In this document: piece by piece, positions 1 to 6,659 of the stretch
Layout of the letters: every line of letters starts with the position of its first letter
Numbering within the stretch: the stretch's first letter is position 1
Virus record (IMG/VR): IMGVR_UViG_2547132270_000010
Span: 1 to 6,659 of that record
From: a virus
Lineage: Duplodnaviria > Heunggongvirae > Uroviricota > Caudoviricetes
Direction: 5' to 3' (one strand)
Length of the DNA stretch: 6,659 nucleotides
Notes under the pieces: model-generated
The model's input: the letters and a program-made list of their open reading frames with translations, nothing else
Told to the model about the DNA's origin: nothing
Database searches by the model: none
Program-made: the position numbers and the translations under genes

Positions 1-6
1 AAAATC

Positions 7-46
7 AAAAAAAAAAAAAAAAAAACCCCGCCGGTCAAGGCGGTGG
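7..46 (-). terminator. Candidate intrinsic terminator: GC hairpin followed by an unusually long 19-nt U tract
   Basis: On the minus strand, CCGCC (32-28) pairs with GGCGG (43-39) around a 6-nt loop, and is followed by 19 consecutive T (plus-strand A run 7-25). The stem is short but all G/C. Confidence 0.6.
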
Positions 47-423
47 TCAAAAAGGCGCTAAAGCCCGGATTATTTTATTGGAATGTATTAGAGGTGTCGG
101 GTGCCTCCCGAAGTATCAGACAAGACATCAGATACTGTGGTCTCCCGCTAAACAATTATTTAAACCACCCTCGCACTGAGGAACACCTCTGTAGTGTTGC
201 TTACAACACCAGAATGGTGCATCACCGGTTCCTGCCAGGAAATACGAAATTCCCACCGATAATGCACCATTCTACTGTTGTAAAAAATGACACTGGAACC
301 ATAACCAATACCACTGATTACATAGCAGAATGCATTGCAAGTTAGTGACTCTACCAACCGAACTAAGCCGGCGTTAGTTCCCTGAGGGGACAGTATTATT
401 GGTGATAAGCTTCCCCAGAATCA
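26..423 (-). ncRNA. Candidate structured non-coding RNA of about 400 nt, identity unknown
   Basis: Bounded by the candidate promoter and the strong terminator. It has no credible ORF: the only two in the track start at weak codons, lack a ribosome-binding site and overlap each other on opposite strands. It contains a 22-bp imperfect inverted repeat (201-222 with 262-283, 20/22), a 7-bp stem hairpin at 360-380 and several smaller dyads. G+C looks intermediate, unlike the AT-rich DNA beside it. Confidence 0.3.
201..283. repeat. 22-bp imperfect inverted repeat (20/22) with a 39-bp spacer that itself contains the palindrome TTCCTG-C-CAGGAA
   Basis: TTACAACACCAGAATGGTGCAT at 201-222 is the reverse complement of ATGCACCATTCTACTGTTGTAA at 262-283 except for two adjacent positions. 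The spacer 223-261 contains TTCCTGCCAGGAA. Confidence 0.8.
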
Positions 424-429
424 TTGTTT

Positions 430-457
430 ATCATACAGTTAAATGACTTAATCGCAA
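430..457 (-). promoter_or_regulatory. Candidate sigma70 promoter driving leftward transcription
   Basis: On the minus strand, TTGCGA (457-452), a 16-nt spacer, then TATGAT (435-430). That is 4/6 and 5/6 matches to the consensus hexamers. The predicted start is near 423, pointing at the terminator at 7-46. Confidence 0.35.
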
Positions 458-778
458 TAAATTGCAATGTCATAATTTGTAAATGTATATATATTTTCTT
501 ATTTTACACCAATGTACGCATCAGCATATAAATAAATTTATTTTGTCCGTGATTATAAAGAGGATAAGCTTTTAATCATGATGCAAAAAAAACAAAAGTT
601 GCTCAGTACAGAAGGTATCAGTACAAGCATGTGTTATGACCACTTATTATTAAAAGTGATTAGATAAATTAAATTTTAATGTTATGAAAGTTTGTCGCTT
701 TGCCATAGCATTTTGTTAGAAAAATTCCGACAGGAATAACGACACTAATAGCCATTAATTATTTTAAGGTAGTAAAAT

Positions 779-865
779 ATGGAAAATAATAAATCTGCAC
801 ACTATGCACCTTTTTTATCGATAATTCTTTTTGTTTGTTGTTTTATTTGGGCATTATTTTTATAA
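779..865 (+). CDS. Hypothetical 28-aa small hydrophobic peptide (speculative)
   Basis: ATG at 779 with AAGG 9 nt upstream. It encodes MENNKSAHYAPFLSIILFVCCFIWALFL, a polar N-terminus followed by an 18-residue hydrophobic stretch, then a TAA stop. It is too short to appear in the ORF track. AT-rich DNA produces such ORFs by chance, hence the low confidence. Confidence 0.15.
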   Translation: MENNKSAHYAPFLSIILFVCCFIWALFL

Positions 866-875
866 AAATAAATTT

Positions 876-916
876 CAAAAAACAATCCACTGAAAAAACT
901 CCAGTAATGAGTGGAT
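876..916 (-). terminator. Weak candidate minus-strand terminator: 7-bp stem, 18-nt loop, then a U6 tract
   Basis: ATCCACT (885-891) and AGTGGAT (910-916) form an inverted repeat. On the minus strand the hairpin is followed by TGTTTTTTG (plus-strand A run 877-882). The loop is large, so function is uncertain. Confidence 0.2.
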
Positions 917-1340
917 GAAAAACAGGCATAGTGTTTTGTGATCGACTACTTTGTATAACCAATTTAATCGGCACATCTCTATGCCTGCGCGCCGGGTATA
1001 TCAAAATATCTCTCGTAATGTGTTAAATCACTTCGCAAATACCACCAAAATACTTTACTAAATGCCAGCATTGCGCTCATTAATGATACGTCGCTGATAC
1101 TAATATGTATCGGAAGTTAACAAAAATGCAGTTCAGCGGTAATCCTTCAACTTTTCGCGAAATCCGAAGCCTTGTCGGGCGACTGTATAGAAATACTTAT
1201 GGCGAGGAATTTGCTCAGCAACTCTCTGAGGGTACATAGAAGAAGGCGACGAGAATGTATCCTGATGAGAGAAAAACGTACGTGCAGATCTGATTTTTAC
1301 GTAAATGGATTGTTAAATATATTTTGGTTGTGATATAACC

Positions 1341-1427
1341 AAAAGAGACCGAATACAGAAATTCGAGTAAATTTCGGGGAGATGCCCGTAACACATTGAT
1401 TTTTAATATTAATAAAAAGAGACCGAA
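1341..1427. repeat. Two identical 13-bp direct repeats AAAAGAGACCGAA, 74 bp apart start to start
   Basis: Exact copies at 1341-1353 and 1415-1427. A related motif AAATTTCGGG occurs at about 1369-1378 and 1573-1582. Confidence 0.8.
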
Positions 1428-1693
1428 AACGATTCCTGTTTTCGTCAACAAACAAGAAACCCTTTTTAAATTAATGTGTTAAGCAAAATTACGCTCATCT
1501 TTTAATCCCAAACACGTACCATTGCATATTAATGCATTCAATTAGTTACCATTTTTTTCGAGTTTTTTAGAGAAAATTTCGGGACTATTTCAGACCAATC
1601 CAGGCAGAAATAAGCAATCTATGAGTTGAATAATTTCTCAACAATTATGTAAGATTATTTCCGGCTGACTTTCATTCAGTTTCGCATTATCGA

Positions 1694-1739
1694 ACGTACG
1701 TCAGCCATCTGCGGCACGTTCTTGCATACGACGTGCCGC
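1694..1739. repeat. GC-rich 9-bp-arm inverted repeat with 11-nt loop, preceded by the palindrome ACGTACGT
   Basis: GCGGCACGT (1711-1719) and ACGTGCCGC (1731-1739) are exact reverse complements. ACGTACGT sits at 1694-1701. On the plus strand the downstream sequence AGCTTCTATTATT is only moderately U-rich, so this could be a weak plus-strand terminator or a protein-binding site. Confidence 0.5.
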
Positions 1740-2000
1740 AGCTTCTATTATTCCAGCATAAAATTCCTAACCAACTTCAAATCCTCTGGATTATTCAACT
1801 CATCCTTCATTTTCCGCCTTTTGGCCTCCTGCTGCTGCGATAAGTTCCGGCGTGACGGTAAACGGGGCACCTTCGCCCCATTTACCGCTCTGCAACTCCT
1901 GCTAAACGGAGTAAACGAGCATTCTATCGCCATAGGTGCAAATCGTGAGCCGAGGTAAGTCTTGTAACTTCGCAATTTTTTTATTGGCTAACTGACGCGC

Positions 2001-2040
2001 AATTCTGGATGACTCCAGCGCGCTCAAAAAGTCCAGAATT
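2001..2040. promoter_or_regulatory. Composite dyad-symmetric site just after the stop codon of the 992-aa gene
   Basis: Outer arms AATTCTGGA (2001-2009) and TCCAGAATT (2032-2040) are exact reverse complements. The inner palindrome AGCGCGCT (2017-2024) shares the same centre of symmetry (2020.5). No U tract follows on either strand, so it is not a classic intrinsic terminator. Confidence 0.4.
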
Positions 2041-2056
2041 GAGCGTAAATTTAACT

Positions 2057-5035
2057 TCAAGCCATGCCGTTCTGGCGTAACGTAGTCCCCGCAAATACTT
2101 TCACTAACAAGACACAAGGCAATGCCCCATTATCTGCACTGGCTGTATCTTCCAGCGTGGACATATCCAGCGCATAGTATGGGATATCAGGCATAACAAT
2201 CTGAATTTTGATTGTTATGGTGCTGGCAGTTGCAGAAACAGAACTGACAAAATACTGAGCCGGGATATATTGTCGGCTCTGGTTCTGGTAGAGGTAGCGA
2301 GGTTCGACTATAGCGGAAACAGCGATACCAACCCCGCCAACCGAAGATTTTTTAATGGGGTTAGATACATCCAGAGTCATTGTGTAAACGCGGGAACCAT
2401 CCGGCAGGCTCTTAAATGAACTCAGGCTGCTGTTAAGTGTGCTTACTACTACCTTCGGAATTACAGGATGAGTGCCGTCAACAAGCAGTGTTTCTGATTG
2501 TTCTTTCAGCAAATTTGTTGCCGCCGTGGAAATGACAGGAGCATGGTTTCTGCACCACATCTGCATGGTGGCATTGTATGTAAATGTAATGGCCTTTCCT
2601 GCAAATATCGCTTCCGGTGCATCTGAAATCTGCACATCCTGCGTAAGGAAGGAGGTTCGTGTAACATCCTCTTTCGGTATGATTGACAGACGGCAACCAT
2701 CAACCAGACCAGGCATTATCCTGAACTGAAGATAAGAAAGCGCGGAATCGCTATCAATAAACAGCACCGTGTCACTGTTAATCGTATCCACCACTACCTG
2801 TGCGTTATTTGCGGGTTTGATATGCCGGATATTTCTTTCAGGAAAGGTAATATCTCCGCCCTCAATAACTGAACGGCCATTTATTCGCATAAAATCACGC
2901 GCGCTCATACGGGGAACGGTTCCCCATGACGAAACAGACATTGCCGCTGTAATATCTGAAATCGTTATAGCTGCCGTTTTTCTTATTTGCAGACGGCGAA
3001 GTGCTGTTGTTGCCGCAGTCTGGGAGGCAGTCACTTTGGCCACGAACGCAAAAAAGTCGCTCATGGCGAAAGTATCAATGCCTGCATAATCAGACGTGAA
3101 CAAATCGGGATATGCCCGCTGTATGGCATCAAGAACAGGCAGGCCATACTGTTCCTGTTCTGCAAGTGTACCCAGAACACCAAAACGCCACGGCGCAACA
3201 GAAAAACGGTCTTTTTGCACAAACCGGTCATTACTGGGTTCATCCGGGTAATCAGACTCGTCATAATAAGTCTTAAATCTGCTCTGGGCAGGAACAAACA
3301 GACCCAGCAGTCCTTGTTTGATGGTTTTCATTGTGGCTTCATATTGCGATACAGCCTCAGAATCATTAACCAGTCCGGCAAGAAAAACCAGGGCACGCAA
3401 TCCAGCCCAGACTTCAGCATTATCCTGACAAAAACATTGCGCATAGTGAGTATTACCGGGCGCAATATCCCCCTGAAAAACATTAACCAGATTTGCCTTA
3501 ACATTAATCTGGCGCAGAATATTATGTTCCGCTACCTGCCTGATTACATGCCATCTGGAATAATCACCGATTCCAGAAGATGCTGATAACCACGGCGCGT
3601 CGGCAATTTCAGCAATGCAGGCAAACCACAGGGACGGATAACTGTCTGTGGAATCCGGTGCCACAGGAGAGTATAAGTCGGCGGCAACATCAACAAAAAA
3701 CCATGACCATGATGACGGGATTTGTTTTTCAGTATTTCCGAGGCACTCAAGAACGACGGAGCCGGTATACACAAACTCACCACGGGATACATTGCTGACA
3801 TCAGGCACGTTTTTCCCTGTAACGCCTGCAACGTTTACGAAAAGGAGTTTGTCATCAATCATCAGACGCTGCCCCGCCTCATAGCGGCTTTCAGGCATAA
3901 ACGGAACAGTTATCCCGAGTCTGAATGCTTTTTCACAAATAACGAGCCTGTCCCTGAGAGAAAAGGCTTTACCCTCACTTTCATACATCGCAAGGAACAA
4001 AAAATACCAGTTAATTCCCCCTGTCGGATTAAGATAACGCCATATCCCGGAATAACGGCCTTCAGTTATTTGCATTGCCAGAAACTGCTTATTGGCTTCG
4101 GTGACAGAATAACGGGTGGAGACAGCAAGATGATCACTGATAAACCCTCTTACGCTGTCTGCTGCCATTTCCGCATCTTTGGCGCTCTGAGCTGATTCTT
4201 CTGCGTTTTGCCCTGATAATCTGACGTCTTCTGCCGTGGCGTTTCGATCTTCAGCTGTTGCTGCCGCGTTTTTTCGGGCTTCATCTGCAAAACGACTGGC
4301 TTCATCTCTGGCTTCAATTGCAGCCTGTGAATCTATGGCTGTTTGTTGCGCATTCTGTTGTGTATTCTGCGCGTACTGCTGCGCCTGCTGTTCACTTATA
4401 GCTGCATTATCTGCACAGTTTTTTGATTTCCCGGCACTGGTTTCTGCGTTTTCTGCCGCATCCTGCGCTGCTTTTACTGCTTCATGAACATCCTTAACAT
4501 CCTGTTGTATCTGTGACGCATTTTCTGACACCTCTGCTGCCAGTTGTTCGACCTGTCGTTTATTTTCTTCGATTGCAACTGAAGCCTGTCCGACTTTATC
4601 CGCCAGCTCTTGTGTGCATTTTTTAGCGTTTTCTGCACTGGCTGCATGCTTTTTGGCTTCATCTGCATTTTCTGCCGCAATTTCAGCACTTTGTTCAACC
4701 TGTGCCACCATCGCCTCGAAACGCTTAACCACGTCTGGCTTTAAATCGTCTTCGTCAAAAACTGTTAAAAAATCATTCAGTGTACCGGGGGTTGATTCTG
4801 GATAAACCGTGATATGACCAACACAGTACTCGTCGCGCCAGTCCTGTTTCAGATATACACAGTATTTCCCGGTCTGTGCTTCAAATGAATATTCACCGTC
4901 AGCGCCCGTTACCACGTCAGCAACAGTGCGCATCACCACTTCTGAGGTGTTTACCCGGGATTTCAGAATTATGTGGCATCCGGACATGGGGATGCCTGCG
5001 CCATCAATCAGCGCACCAGAAATTATAGCGGACAT
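2057..5035 (-). CDS. Side tail fibre / tailspike-like receptor-binding protein: Stf-type N-terminal domain, Ala/Glu-rich coiled-coil repeats, large unassigned C-terminal domain
   Basis: 992-aa ORF with ATG at 5033-5035, GGAG 7 nt upstream, TGA stop at 2057-2059. The N-terminus (MSAIISGALIDGAGIPMSGCHIILKSRVNTSEVV...GHITVYPESTPGTLNDFL) closely resembles the N-terminal tail-attachment domain of lambda-family Stf proteins such as Rac StfR, recalled from memory. Residues about 100-300 are low-complexity AENA/AQQ-type helical repeats. The C-terminal roughly 690 aa are not a typical Gly-rich fibre repeat. Confidence 0.85.
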   Translation of the reverse strand: MSAIISGALIDGAGIPMSGCHIILKSRVNTSEVVMRTVADVVTGADGEYSFEAQTGKYCVYLKQDWRDEYCVGHITVYPESTPGTLNDFLTVFDEDDLKPDVVKRFEAMVAQVEQSAEIAAENADEAKKHAASAENAKKCTQELADKVGQASVAIEENKRQVEQLAAEVSENASQIQQDVKDVHEAVKAAQDAAENAETSAGKSKNCADNAAISEQQAQQYAQNTQQNAQQTAIDSQAAIEARDEASRFADEARKNAAATAEDRNATAEDVRLSGQNAEESAQSAKDAEMAADSVRGFISDHLAVSTRYSVTEANKQFLAMQITEGRYSGIWRYLNPTGGINWYFLFLAMYESEGKAFSLRDRLVICEKAFRLGITVPFMPESRYEAGQRLMIDDKLLFVNVAGVTGKNVPDVSNVSRGEFVYTGSVVLECLGNTEKQIPSSWSWFFVDVAADLYSPVAPDSTDSYPSLWFACIAEIADAPWLSASSGIGDYSRWHVIRQVAEHNILRQINVKANLVNVFQGDIAPGNTHYAQCFCQDNAEVWAGLRALVFLAGLVNDSEAVSQYEATMKTIKQGLLGLFVPAQSRFKTYYDESDYPDEPSNDRFVQKDRFSVAPWRFGVLGTLAEQEQYGLPVLDAIQRAYPDLFTSDYAGIDTFAMSDFFAFVAKVTASQTAATTALRRLQIRKTAAITISDITAAMSVSSWGTVPRMSARDFMRINGRSVIEGGDITFPERNIRHIKPANNAQVVVDTINSDTVLFIDSDSALSYLQFRIMPGLVDGCRLSIIPKEDVTRTSFLTQDVQISDAPEAIFAGKAITFTYNATMQMWCRNHAPVISTAATNLLKEQSETLLVDGTHPVIPKVVVSTLNSSLSSFKSLPDGSRVYTMTLDVSNPIKKSSVGGVGIAVSAIVEPRYLYQNQSRQYIPAQYFVSSVSATASTITIKIQIVMPDIPYYALDMSTLEDTASADNGALPCVLLVKVFAGTTLRQNGMA

Positions 5036-5054
5036 ATTAACTCCAGAAAGATAA

Positions 5055-5489
5055 TTAACCAGAATGCGGAATATTATTTGAAGGTTTATCCGGCCATTCC
5101 GGTTTTTCTGTATTAACCCTGCTCACATGCACACTGTAACGCGCCCATAACTCCAGCATTTCTCGCTCAGCATCAGTAGCCATACCAAGTTTTACGGCTC
5201 GCTCCAGTGGTAATATAATAGATTCTGCTTCTGCCAGAAGTTTGGATTTCTGCCTCTCTGCTTGTTCTGTTAATTCTTCCCGAGTTGGCAGCTCTGGCTC
5301 TGTCACTACTGGCTGACCATATTCATTCGGGTTAATGGTTTTACCTTCTGATTGCTTATCCAAGAGATAACGATACCAGCGTTCTGATATTTCCAGAACA
5401 TCATCCGGCCATGTGCCATTAATATCATAATCACTTCTCAGACTGTCATCATAAAAACTATTTTCTGATGAGCTGTAATAAATCGCCAT
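5055..5489 (-). CDS. tfa: Tail fibre assembly protein (Tfa-type chaperone)
   Basis: 144-aa ORF starting at ATG 5487-5489, 1 nt after the upstream tail-fibre TAA (TAA-T-ATG coupling). The C-terminal motif [33 protein letters not shown] matches the conserved C-terminus of lambda Tfa as I recall it (...[28 protein letters not shown]). Size and position are typical. Confidence 0.85.
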
Positions 5490-5490
5490 A

Positions 5491-6659
5491 TTAGTAACCT
5501 ATAGCTGTCCAGTACATATGTCCGTTATTTTCGCTGTTAAAAGTTGCACCTGTCCTTGATAAGGATTTTACCGAGATAGAATAATCGGCGCGGGTATGTG
5601 CGTTGGTAATAGTAATACTGGTGCATGCTGACGGAAATGCTGTCGGAAAAGTAAGACCTGCCCCGGCGTTACTGAGATACCCCCACTGCGTAATAATTCC
5701 GGTTGACGCATCTTTGTGCCAGCCATTTGCTGCTTTTGATGCGGTGTTTTTAGCCTGATAACGGGCATCTGACTCCGCTTTCGTATAGGAATTTCCAGTT
5801 CTTAAATATCTGGAGTCGAAGTTACCATAATCAGAAGGGTTAACACGCCCGGTAACATTAATTGTTTTATTGCTTTGAATACCGCCACTGGTAAAACGGA
5901 GTACATGCTGCCCATTGGCATAAACATCTAGGACACCATCCCCGTTCTGCTTAAAACCTGTGTCATTGTCTCCGAGAGCAATTGAGTTACCCCCCAGCGC
6001 GTTCTGAACACCGATACCCAGCGCACCATTCACCTGAGAACCGCCGCCAACAGACACTTTATGCGACATGGATATTTCACCAGTCCGCAGATTAATAGTG
6101 AACGGGCGAAGTGGACCAATATCACCACTCTCGCCCTGATTTTCCCGAGTAGGAATGAGATGCAGGCACTCTTCCGAACGACGAAAAATAAGGCCAAAAG
6201 CCTCGTTAAAAATCCTCAGCGCATTAACGCCGCGAATTTTCAACTCTCCGGTCATCAAATCACCAGACTTTTTTACATACCTCTGATCAAAATCTGAATA
6301 AATATTGCCGGGATTTATCACGCTAAAATAGCTTTTCTCACTATCAAGAAGACAAATCAAGGGAATGCCTTTAATGATATCGTTCGCTACCAGTCTGGAT
6401 TTGTTTCCCTTATAAAGTGGGAACGTACCAAGAACCTTTCCGCCTAGTGTTAGTTGAAGTGTCGCCGCGTTGGTATTGTTCTGAACGGGGAAAACGATAA
6501 TCGGGGTTCGTAGCGTCCAATCTGTACCTCCATTAACAAAAAACGTCGAGGGAAGTTCCAGCGTCAGTGCGTTTGCAGTGCCACCAGCAACACCCGCAAT
6601 ATAATGGCCGCTCTGAAGCTGCGCTATCTGTACGAAATAGTTTTCCGAACCACGCGTGG
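5491..6659 (-). CDS. Phage tail fibre protein, C-terminal portion; 5' end lies beyond the window edge
   Basis: The minus-strand frame stays open from the window edge (6659) to a TAA stop at 5491-5493. The 289-aa ORF in the track starts at an internal TTG; the same frame reads without stops upstream (...[29 protein letters not shown]...). The Gly/Ser/Asn-rich beta-type composition and the [11 protein letters not shown] motif are typical of distal tail-fibre segments in lambda Stf, P2 H and Mu S type proteins. The stop is 1 nt from the start of a tail-fibre assembly gene. Confidence 0.8.

Follow-up and report, generated by a model that had tools for sequence, protein, structure and literature searches.

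We analysed a 6,659-nucleotide (nt) stretch of viral DNA (hereafter the window), which spans positions 1 to 6,659 of IMG/VR record IMGVR_UViG_2547132270_000010 and represents one complete draft contig, AEJY01000213.1 of GCA_000208505.2. We consider it probable that the segment running from about position 457 to 7 on the minus strand is a small RNA (sRNA) gene of the STnc100/PasD superfamily, a divergent sub-type whose product is most likely Hfq-dependent and trans-acting. A sequence-only reading of this DNA had proposed a self-contained, non-coding, minus-strand unit that produces a novel structured RNA. The unit itself is borne out by our comparative analysis, with a promoter, a terminator, a conserved fold and no conserved open reading frame (ORF). 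As judged by covariance models, the RNA is a divergent, unannotated sub-type of a known prophage sRNA superfamily and not a new class, and the 3′ two-thirds of it is, on the same grounds, a divergent copy of the STnc100 core. The features of the unit are given below; L-numbers denote loci retrieved by a signature-motif scan of IMG/VR and GTDB genomes, which returned >190 loci.

469–506, minus strand: AT-rich block plus TGAC upstream of the promoter, a possible UP element (ungapped three-way alignment with L001 and L003)
430–457, minus strand: sigma-70-type promoter with −35 TTGCGA (457–452), a 16-nt spacer and −10 TATGAT (435–430) (consensus scan)
373–429, minus strand: transcribed leader, homologous to the promoter-to-tRNA-Thr leader of relatives (alignment A6)
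334–372, minus strand: tRNA-Thr remnant, the first 39 nt, with the acceptor 5′ strand, the D arm and the 5′ half of the anticodon arm (alignment A6)
292–333, minus strand: spacer, alignable to the 3′ end of the relatives' tRNA-Gly-to-hairpin spacer (alignments)
196–291, minus strand: 5′ domain, a long hairpin of 27+4 pairs that holds a 22-bp inverted repeat and a palindrome (RNAalifold and pair counts)
87–191, minus strand: STnc100-like multibranch core of four hairpins (Rfam STnc100 alignment; covariance model R1, 114.9 bits)
97–111, minus strand: invariant signature hairpin UCGGG-AGGCA-CCCGA, the last of the core's four (pattern scans, >120 viral loci)
47–86, minus strand: A/U-rich single-stranded linker, consensus AUUACAAUAAAA..., unpaired in the consensus fold and partly invariant
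7–46, minus strand: Rho-independent terminator CCACCGCC-UUGAC-CGGCGGGG followed by 19 U (terminator scan, folding)

At gathering thresholds, no Rfam family matched in the window. A permissive Rfam search gave one coherent match, to STnc100 (RF02076), which joins window 217→45 on the minus strand to the full model (1–206) with 26.7 bits versus a gathering score of 47 and an E value of about 7e-4 to 1.5e-3. Its anchors are CGGGAGGCACCCG-CACC and the GGUG...CACC closing helix. Three other window-type copies with a match at E ≤ 0.05 score 27.6–28.4 bits on the same model, and PasD1 of enteropathogenic Escherichia coli (EPEC) is likewise sub-threshold, with 37.7 bits. The base pair of the signature hairpin (alignment columns 303/321) is U-A in the window and C-G in canonical copies, being CG in 84 sequences and UA in 23. 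Some copies of the U-A form pass the STnc100 gathering score (48.7–68.9 bits), and the C-G-form loci that we sampled pass it with 52–161 bits; the latter often stand directly after tRNAs and are sometimes in tandem, with up to four copies. Taken together, the scores (27.6–28.4, 37.7 and 48.7–161 bits) form a continuum in which the window-type copies lie just below the Rfam line. The sub-threshold score of PasD1 also fits the common ancestry that has been proposed for PasD and STnc100 (bioRxiv 10.64898/2026.05.13.724894).

The relationship was also examined in the reverse direction, by using a covariance model built only from window-type cores (R1) together with a model of the 5′ hairpin (R2). 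R1, which gives 114.9 bits on the window core, found about 107 matched sites in STnc100-bearing loci, with E values from 2e-12 down to about 1e-2. All of these are full-model matches except one that is cut by the locus end, and some lie inside Rfam hits that pass the gathering score, such as L023 3150–3259 within 3121–3311. The Rfam match of the window is sub-threshold only, but the reciprocal model reaches the STnc100 loci, and the earlier description of the RNA as novel is not supported. A superfamily alignment (A4) of 116 R1 matches, 108 of them distinct, has 92.3% of its cells paired and shows compensatory change at 27 of 32 pairs (593 cells, versus 73–124 in slid controls); these changes include the C-G to U-A switch in the basal pair of the signature hairpin. 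The R2 hairpin is present in every window-type copy, and diverged versions of it precede other U-A variants as well as canonical STnc100 arrays (L014, L039 and L049). The array in L014 (2265–3380) consists of four canonical STnc100 copies.

Like STnc100, the window RNA has a multibranch core with a closing helix that ends in GGUG...CACC; the first hairpin carries a GUGCG loop, the third or fourth is long, and the CGGG-AGGCA-CCCG hairpin is invariant. An A/U-rich linker and an intrinsic terminator are common to both as well. Window-type copies and STnc100 are also alike in their place in lambdoid prophages, with Q/tRNA on one side, the lysis genes on the other and the same strand as the late operon. 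The two differ in the signature base pair and in the sequences of the linker and terminator, they display no BLAST similarity outside an 18–25-nt motif, and in place of the STnc100 5′ segment the window RNA has a conserved 95-nt 5′ hairpin with no counterpart in the Rfam model. PasD1 and PasD2 (EcOnc13, EPEC E2348/69) resemble the window RNA in being sub-threshold relatives of STnc100 that are located between Q and holin and are arranged in the order core, single-stranded stretch and terminator. Unlike the window RNA, they are 172–173 nt long and devoid of the long 5′ hairpin, and PasD is largely limited to EPEC and enterohaemorrhagic E. coli (EHEC), whereas window-type copies occur in about 430–520 of 5,426 complete E. 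coli genomes. When R1 was run against the PasD1 locus (L195) nothing was found at E ≤ 1, and the window RNA lacks the PasD seed UGUGAG. On these two grounds we rejected identity with PasD and treat the window-type RNAs as a separate lineage.

Other known RNAs were considered as well. No Rfam model of tmRNA, RNase P, 6S, CsrB, AgvB, AsxR or GcvB reaches its gathering score in the window, which for the first four agrees with what the sequence-only reading had stated. The GcvB model gave 17.6 bits versus a threshold of 42, and AgvB and AsxR (RF02702, RF02703) had no match on either strand at E ≤ 10. Sub-threshold matches to miRNA models, on the long hairpin, and to Hrs1 and GcvB, on the terminator region, were treated as stem-loop by-products. 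A retron, an omega-RNA or a transposon-associated RNA was rejected: the window holds no partner gene (no reverse transcriptase, TnpB or IscB, as had been noted before), and the neighbours of the homologues are Q, tRNAs and holins. sRNAs derived from tRNA operons (3′ETS-leuZ) and phage sRNAs proximal to pR′ (StxS and lambda 6S RNA) are functional analogues only. They are similar to the window RNA in that, in its intact relatives, an RNA lies behind a shared promoter after tRNA-Gly and has a terminator upstream of the late genes; they are without similarity to it in sequence or structure. The AgvB and AsxR anti-sRNAs are found in the same niche, where Hfq-binding sRNAs form "dyads" after the late promoter and ahead of the lysis genes (PMC7873438); they differ from the window RNA in lacking an Rfam match to it. 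Weak matches to the tmRNA model (16–19 bits versus 47) a few hundred nt downstream of the RNA in two other loci (L135 1479–1574 and L161 771–866) are probably spurious. Matches to C4 antisense RNA, its a1/b1 targets and isrK, all part of a P1/P7-type immunity RNA system, were seen in L164 (3379–3579) and L007 (4878–5066) and are unrelated.

The 430-nt RNA folds with −148.5 kcal/mol (z = −5.66 versus shuffles). By RNAalifold consensus the conserved unit extends from about 291 to 7 on the minus strand and consists of the 95-nt 5′ hairpin, the four-hairpin multibranch core, the A/U-rich linker and the terminator. Among the window-type sequences, of which 25 distinct ones were collected and 22 aligned (alignment A1), conservation begins at a T-run at window position ~295 and continues to the terminator, and the sequences upstream are divergent. 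The unit proposed for 457→7 stands as a promoter-to-terminator unit, of which only ~291→7 is the conserved part; 429–292 comprises the leader, the tRNA-Thr stump and a deletion scar. The 22-bp inverted repeat described at 201–283 is real and forms the middle of the 27+4-pair hairpin. A check of this stem for compensatory substitutions found them in 8 of the 27 pairs of helix 1, with 98% of cells paired. The palindrome TTCCTGCCAGGAA is also real and falls in the apical part of the 5′ hairpin, where the tip and internal loop are near-invariant (GGUGG...UUUCCUGGCAGG in the RNA sense).

In the core, the closing helix is formed by GAGGUG (189–184) and CACCUC (96–91), and the signature hairpin followed by CACC, the 3′ strand of this helix, constitutes the STnc100 signature at window 111→91. 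The linker (86–47) is a candidate Hfq-binding or seed region by analogy to PasD, which has its seed at the equivalent place (PMC8550237). The terminator stem, CCGCC/GGCGG, lies at 43–28 and can be extended to 46, with the 19 U at 25–7. The strong terminator of the sequence-only reading is thus present, and the same terminator is found in 25 of 25 distinct homologues, there with 7–9 U. Because the contig ends 6 nt beyond the run (window 1–25), the length of 19 U is unreliable. The homopolymer probably explains why the contig breaks at this place, and its length may be an assembly artefact.

The fold is under selection as RNA. Of 1,492 pair cells in the 22 distinct window-type RNAs, 97.7% hold a standard pair, and compensatory double changes occur at 13 pairs (52 cells) versus 1–3 pairs in controls slid by 1–3 columns. 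There are 213 G·U cells versus 3 A·C cells, and R2 scores 100 bits on the sense (minus) strand of the window versus 43.9 bits on the antisense (plus) strand, which together indicate that selection acts on the minus-strand RNA and not on a DNA palindrome. The window has ORFs of 100 amino acids (plus strand, 43–345) and 65 amino acids (minus strand) in this region, neither of which has a Pfam match. No ORF is conserved among the homologues: the longest frames vary in strand, frame and length (44–103 codons), and 1-nt insertions and deletions are frequent. We consequently rejected a protein-coding interpretation of either frame, in keeping with the earlier statement that the region holds no believable ORF.

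The promoter matches 9 of 12 consensus positions and is present as originally described. By consensus alone it is not above chance, since 7 promoter-like sites occur in window 1–2200 versus 7.3±2.8 in shuffles. It is, however, homologous to the tRNA-operon promoter of relatives. In 15 window-type prophage loci, a TTGCGATTGGAWTATTAAAYCGTATYAT block homologous to the window promoter precedes tRNA-Thr at a fixed distance of ~60 nt, and promoter scans of two intact relatives gave TTGCGA-16-TATCAT or TTGCGA-16-TATTAT at this place. Direct alignment places window 520–405 collinear with the promoter regions of L001 and L003 over the AT-rich block, the −35, the −10 and the start of the leader. The best ungapped match of window 520–334 to relatives has 96 of 187 identities, versus 68.9±2.5 in shuffles (maximum 82). 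This homology emerged only in direct alignment guided by the promoter scans of homologues; window 296–640 had no BLAST match among complete E. coli genomes.

The leader is followed by a tRNA-Thr stump (372–334) in which 31 of 39 positions are identical to the tRNA-Thr of L001 and L003. Beside the stump ~200 nt are deleted, which held the remaining part of tRNA-Thr, the whole of tRNA-Gly and most of the spacer, and homology to the relatives resumes ~45 nt before the 5′ hairpin. No intact tRNA was detected in the window by ARAGORN, and the Rfam tRNA model had no match there at E ≤ 10. The hairpin noted earlier at 360–380 exists in the sequence; it is composed of leader and the 5′ end of the truncated tRNA-Thr and is not conserved as a hairpin. 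From these alignments, the window unit derives by deletion from a phage cassette in which promoter, tRNA-Thr, tRNA-Gly, sRNA and terminator follow one another. Since promoter, leader and tRNA stump all align with the intact relatives, the transcription unit is, on comparative evidence, real. In L003 (4737–4768, minus strand; equivalent to ~5746–5759 in L001), the interval from the Q stop codon to the TTGCGA promoter contains a strong hairpin that has a U-rich tail. This hairpin might be the tR′ of a very short, StxS-like pR′ transcript, which would make TTGCGA a second, tRNA-sRNA promoter; alternatively, the TTGCGA promoter might be the late promoter pR′ itself. A terminator-like hairpin, GTTCCCTGAGGGGAC with a T-rich tail, is also found on the opposite strand inside the window leader (377–391, plus strand).

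Homologues of the RNA are widespread. BLAST detected DNA that is 73–86% identical over window ~12–332 in about 430–520 complete E. coli genomes and in a few phages; E. coli W and E24377A are examples of strains whose copy is in an intact context. The window copy has only 73–80% identity to its nearest relatives. Among the matches listed, nearly all have no annotated feature under the homologous stretch. In annotated examples, the stretch is situated between tRNA-Thr/tRNA-Gly, downstream of Q, and the holin/lysis genes, on the late-operon strand. A tRNA ends ~300 nt upstream of the motif in all 35 of the 38 other window-type copies that have this much upstream sequence. Where tblastn queries matched in these copies, as they did for the holin in most of them, a holin is encoded 260–1800 nt downstream on the same strand, and the Q gene lies upstream. 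In intact relatives the RNA is co-oriented with tRNA-Gly, ~115 nt downstream of it and behind a shared promoter. Two full copies (hairpin and core), ~1–2 kb apart in one late region, were seen in L180 (7031–7229) and L002 (6966–7165), and a second 5′ hairpin in the same late region in L161 (1624–1715) and L187 (4128–4219).

The surroundings of the window copy are different. Upstream of the RNA unit and on the same strand is a tail-fibre module (2057–6659), which contains the following genes:

5491–6360, minus strand: Gp53-like_C tail-fibre protein, running off the contig end (Pfam)
5055–5489, minus strand: Caudo_TAP assembly protein, 144 amino acids (Pfam)
2057–5035, minus strand: tail-fibre protein with the N-terminal domain phage_tail_N, 992 amino acids (Pfam)

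The 1.6 kb between the RNA unit and the tail-fibre gene (460–2056) are AT-rich and non-coding, with GC down to 27%; a Pfam scan of the small ORFs in 460–2057 gave nothing significant, and none of them is credible. Within this interval, window ~1114–1744 has 81–84% similarity to a frameshifted Rac-like integrase pseudogene, in its 3′ end region, and to the sequence beyond it, and window ~1412–1810 has ~96% similarity to the prophage/pphA junction of other E. coli together with the end of a DUF4376 gene. By these similarities, 460–2056 looks like prophage-junction debris, and the RNA unit looks like a displaced piece of a late region among that debris, not cargo of the tail-fibre module. The sequence-only reading had placed the unit at the distal end of such a module, which it called a classic site for accessory cargo. 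An origin as tail-fibre cargo was rejected: the 38 other window-type copies sit between Q/tRNA and the lysis genes wherever their flanks were available or matched, debris separates the window unit from the tail fibre, and tblastn with the window tail proteins found no tail genes beside any of 216 other motif sites. A 49-bp segment at window 641–689 is 93.9% identical to an unannotated place in three E. coli siphophage records (vB_EcoS-666R9 and others), and it may also account for the many BLAST matches at 90–95% identity among E. coli genomes.

The following model would connect these results. The ancestral operon, between Q and the lysis genes, would have consisted of a promoter, tRNA-Thr, tRNA-Gly, the sRNA as last gene and an intrinsic terminator, and intact phages would make the RNA by co-transcription with the tRNAs. 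In the window, loss of the tRNAs save for the 39-nt stump would leave the conserved promoter to drive a transcript of ~415 nt, of which the conserved RNA would be the 3′ ~285 nt. Hfq would bind and stabilise this RNA via the U tail of the terminator and the A/U-rich linker, and the RNA would base-pair in trans with host or prophage mRNAs or sRNAs, with the linker or the conserved loops as the pairing surface. In intact prophages, the terminator would have a second role, to stop Q-independent transcription before the lysis genes until Q acts. We infer expression in the source strain, Hfq binding and base-pairing in trans by analogy to relatives. STnc100 copies are transcribed in EHEC, one of them confirmed by Northern blot in EDL933 (PMC5331693), and EcOnc27/sRNA103, which overlaps an STnc100 copy downstream of stx2B, binds Hfq (PMC12711010, PMC7873438). 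[quoted passage not shown] The interval from the late promoter to the lysis genes is, moreover, a hot-spot of Hfq-binding phage sRNAs (PMC7873438).

Several points weigh against assigning the window to an Hfq-dependent, trans-acting member of this superfamily. Its STnc100 score is well under the family gathering threshold. The agreement in A4 is somewhat inflated, as it was made by fitting to the model and its loci were picked via a shared 18-nt motif. The failure of R1 to find PasD1 and the missing UGUGAG seed set the window RNA apart from PasD, and targets are consequently not transferable from relatives. Discrete, Hfq-bound and Hfq-stabilised expression is known for the relatives only (PMC5331693, PMC7873438, PMC8550237) and would have to extend to the window RNA. 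For a simple seed-pairing sRNA, the core is unusually elaborate and invariant in sequence. Finally, promoter and tRNA stump survive in the window copy, but a tail-fibre module and prophage debris precede it. It is outside its usual context and without the tRNAs, and what lies downstream is hidden by the contig end, so it could be a relic.

These points lead to the competing explanations. The element may act in cis, as a late-region leader and terminator that keeps Q-independent transcription, started at the tRNA promoter or at pR′, from reaching the lysis genes and is read through by Q-modified polymerase; the released RNA would then be a by-product, like the lambda "6S" RNA. The position of the element between Q, the promoter or tRNA genes and holin, on the same strand in all intact relatives, is compatible with such a function, as are the strong terminator kept in every copy and the tandem copies and arrays, of which the four STnc100 copies in L014 are an example. 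A terminator, however, needs neither ~240 nt of upstream structure with compensatory changes nor invariant loops, and members of the family accumulate as discrete Hfq-bound RNAs (PMC7873438, PMC8550237). We regard a purely cis-acting element as unlikely, and the cis- and trans-acting roles are compatible with each other. It is also rather unlikely, in our estimate, that the RNA is not a conventional base-pairing sRNA and instead functions through its fold, as a protein-binding, sponge or scaffold RNA co-evolving with phage tRNA clusters. The four-hairpin junction in which 27 of 32 pairs covary across 108 distinct sequences, the invariant loops AGGCA, GUGCG and CUGGCAGG, the placement directly after tRNA genes, and the sponge activity of the neighbouring phage sRNAs AgvB and AsxR (PMC7873438) would all suit such an RNA. 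Set against this, no partner is known, and for the relatives RIL-seq and cross-linking and analysis of cDNA (CRAC) give evidence of Hfq-mediated RNA-RNA pairing (PMC8550237). A broader form of the idea, which we hold to be improbable, is that the whole STnc100 superfamily is a fold-dependent RNA tied to phage tRNA clusters, serving as a scaffold, decoy, tRNA-processing or anti-defence element. It fits because of the four-hairpin junction with its invariant loops, the invariant CUGGCAGG internal loop in the 5′ hairpin and the obligatory post-tRNA placement; the Hfq association of some members would then be secondary.

That the window copy is a non-functional relic, a decaying late-region fragment in prophage debris that is neither expressed nor selected, would be in line with the deletion of its tRNAs, the AT-rich non-coding flanks resembling an integrase 3′ end and a prophage end, the odd 19-U run at the contig end and the low identity to its nearest relatives. 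Yet despite ~20–27% divergence, the window copy scores 114.9 bits on R1 and 100 bits on R2, as high as copies in intact contexts, which makes decay very unlikely. In addition, promoter, structure and terminator are all intact, and the deletion took exactly the tRNAs and left the promoter joined to the RNA. We attach almost no weight to the remaining explanation, in which the region is a small protein gene (the 100-amino-acid plus-strand ORF at 43–345 or the 65-amino-acid minus-strand ORF) or an inverted repeat that acts as DNA, for example as a recombination site. The ORFs do exist, the inverted repeat is long and a hypothetical protein is annotated in antisense over the homologous region of one phage record. 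The frames, however, have no Pfam match and are not conserved in strand, frame or length, 1-nt insertions and deletions are frequent among homologues, and a DNA palindrome would not tolerate the observed excess of G·U over A·C. An STnc100/PasD-type sRNA that is Hfq-dependent and acts in trans thus stays our preferred reading of the window.

STnc100 is among the most abundant annotated sRNA families in enterobacterial genomes. For the window itself, the outcome is modest, a real RNA gene of a known kind. For the family, our data show a sizeable sister lineage, present in roughly 8–10% of complete E. coli genomes and in many IMG/VR prophages, which escapes annotation by Rfam and by the Prokaryotic Genome Annotation Pipeline (PGAP). 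This lineage brings an extra conserved 5′ domain, and in it the window-type RNA is the last gene in a cassette of promoter, tRNA, sRNA and terminator that precedes the lysis genes. The 5′ domain and the order of the cassette lead to testable ideas on how the RNA is generated (co-transcription with tRNAs) and on why the late leader is a hot-spot for sRNAs.

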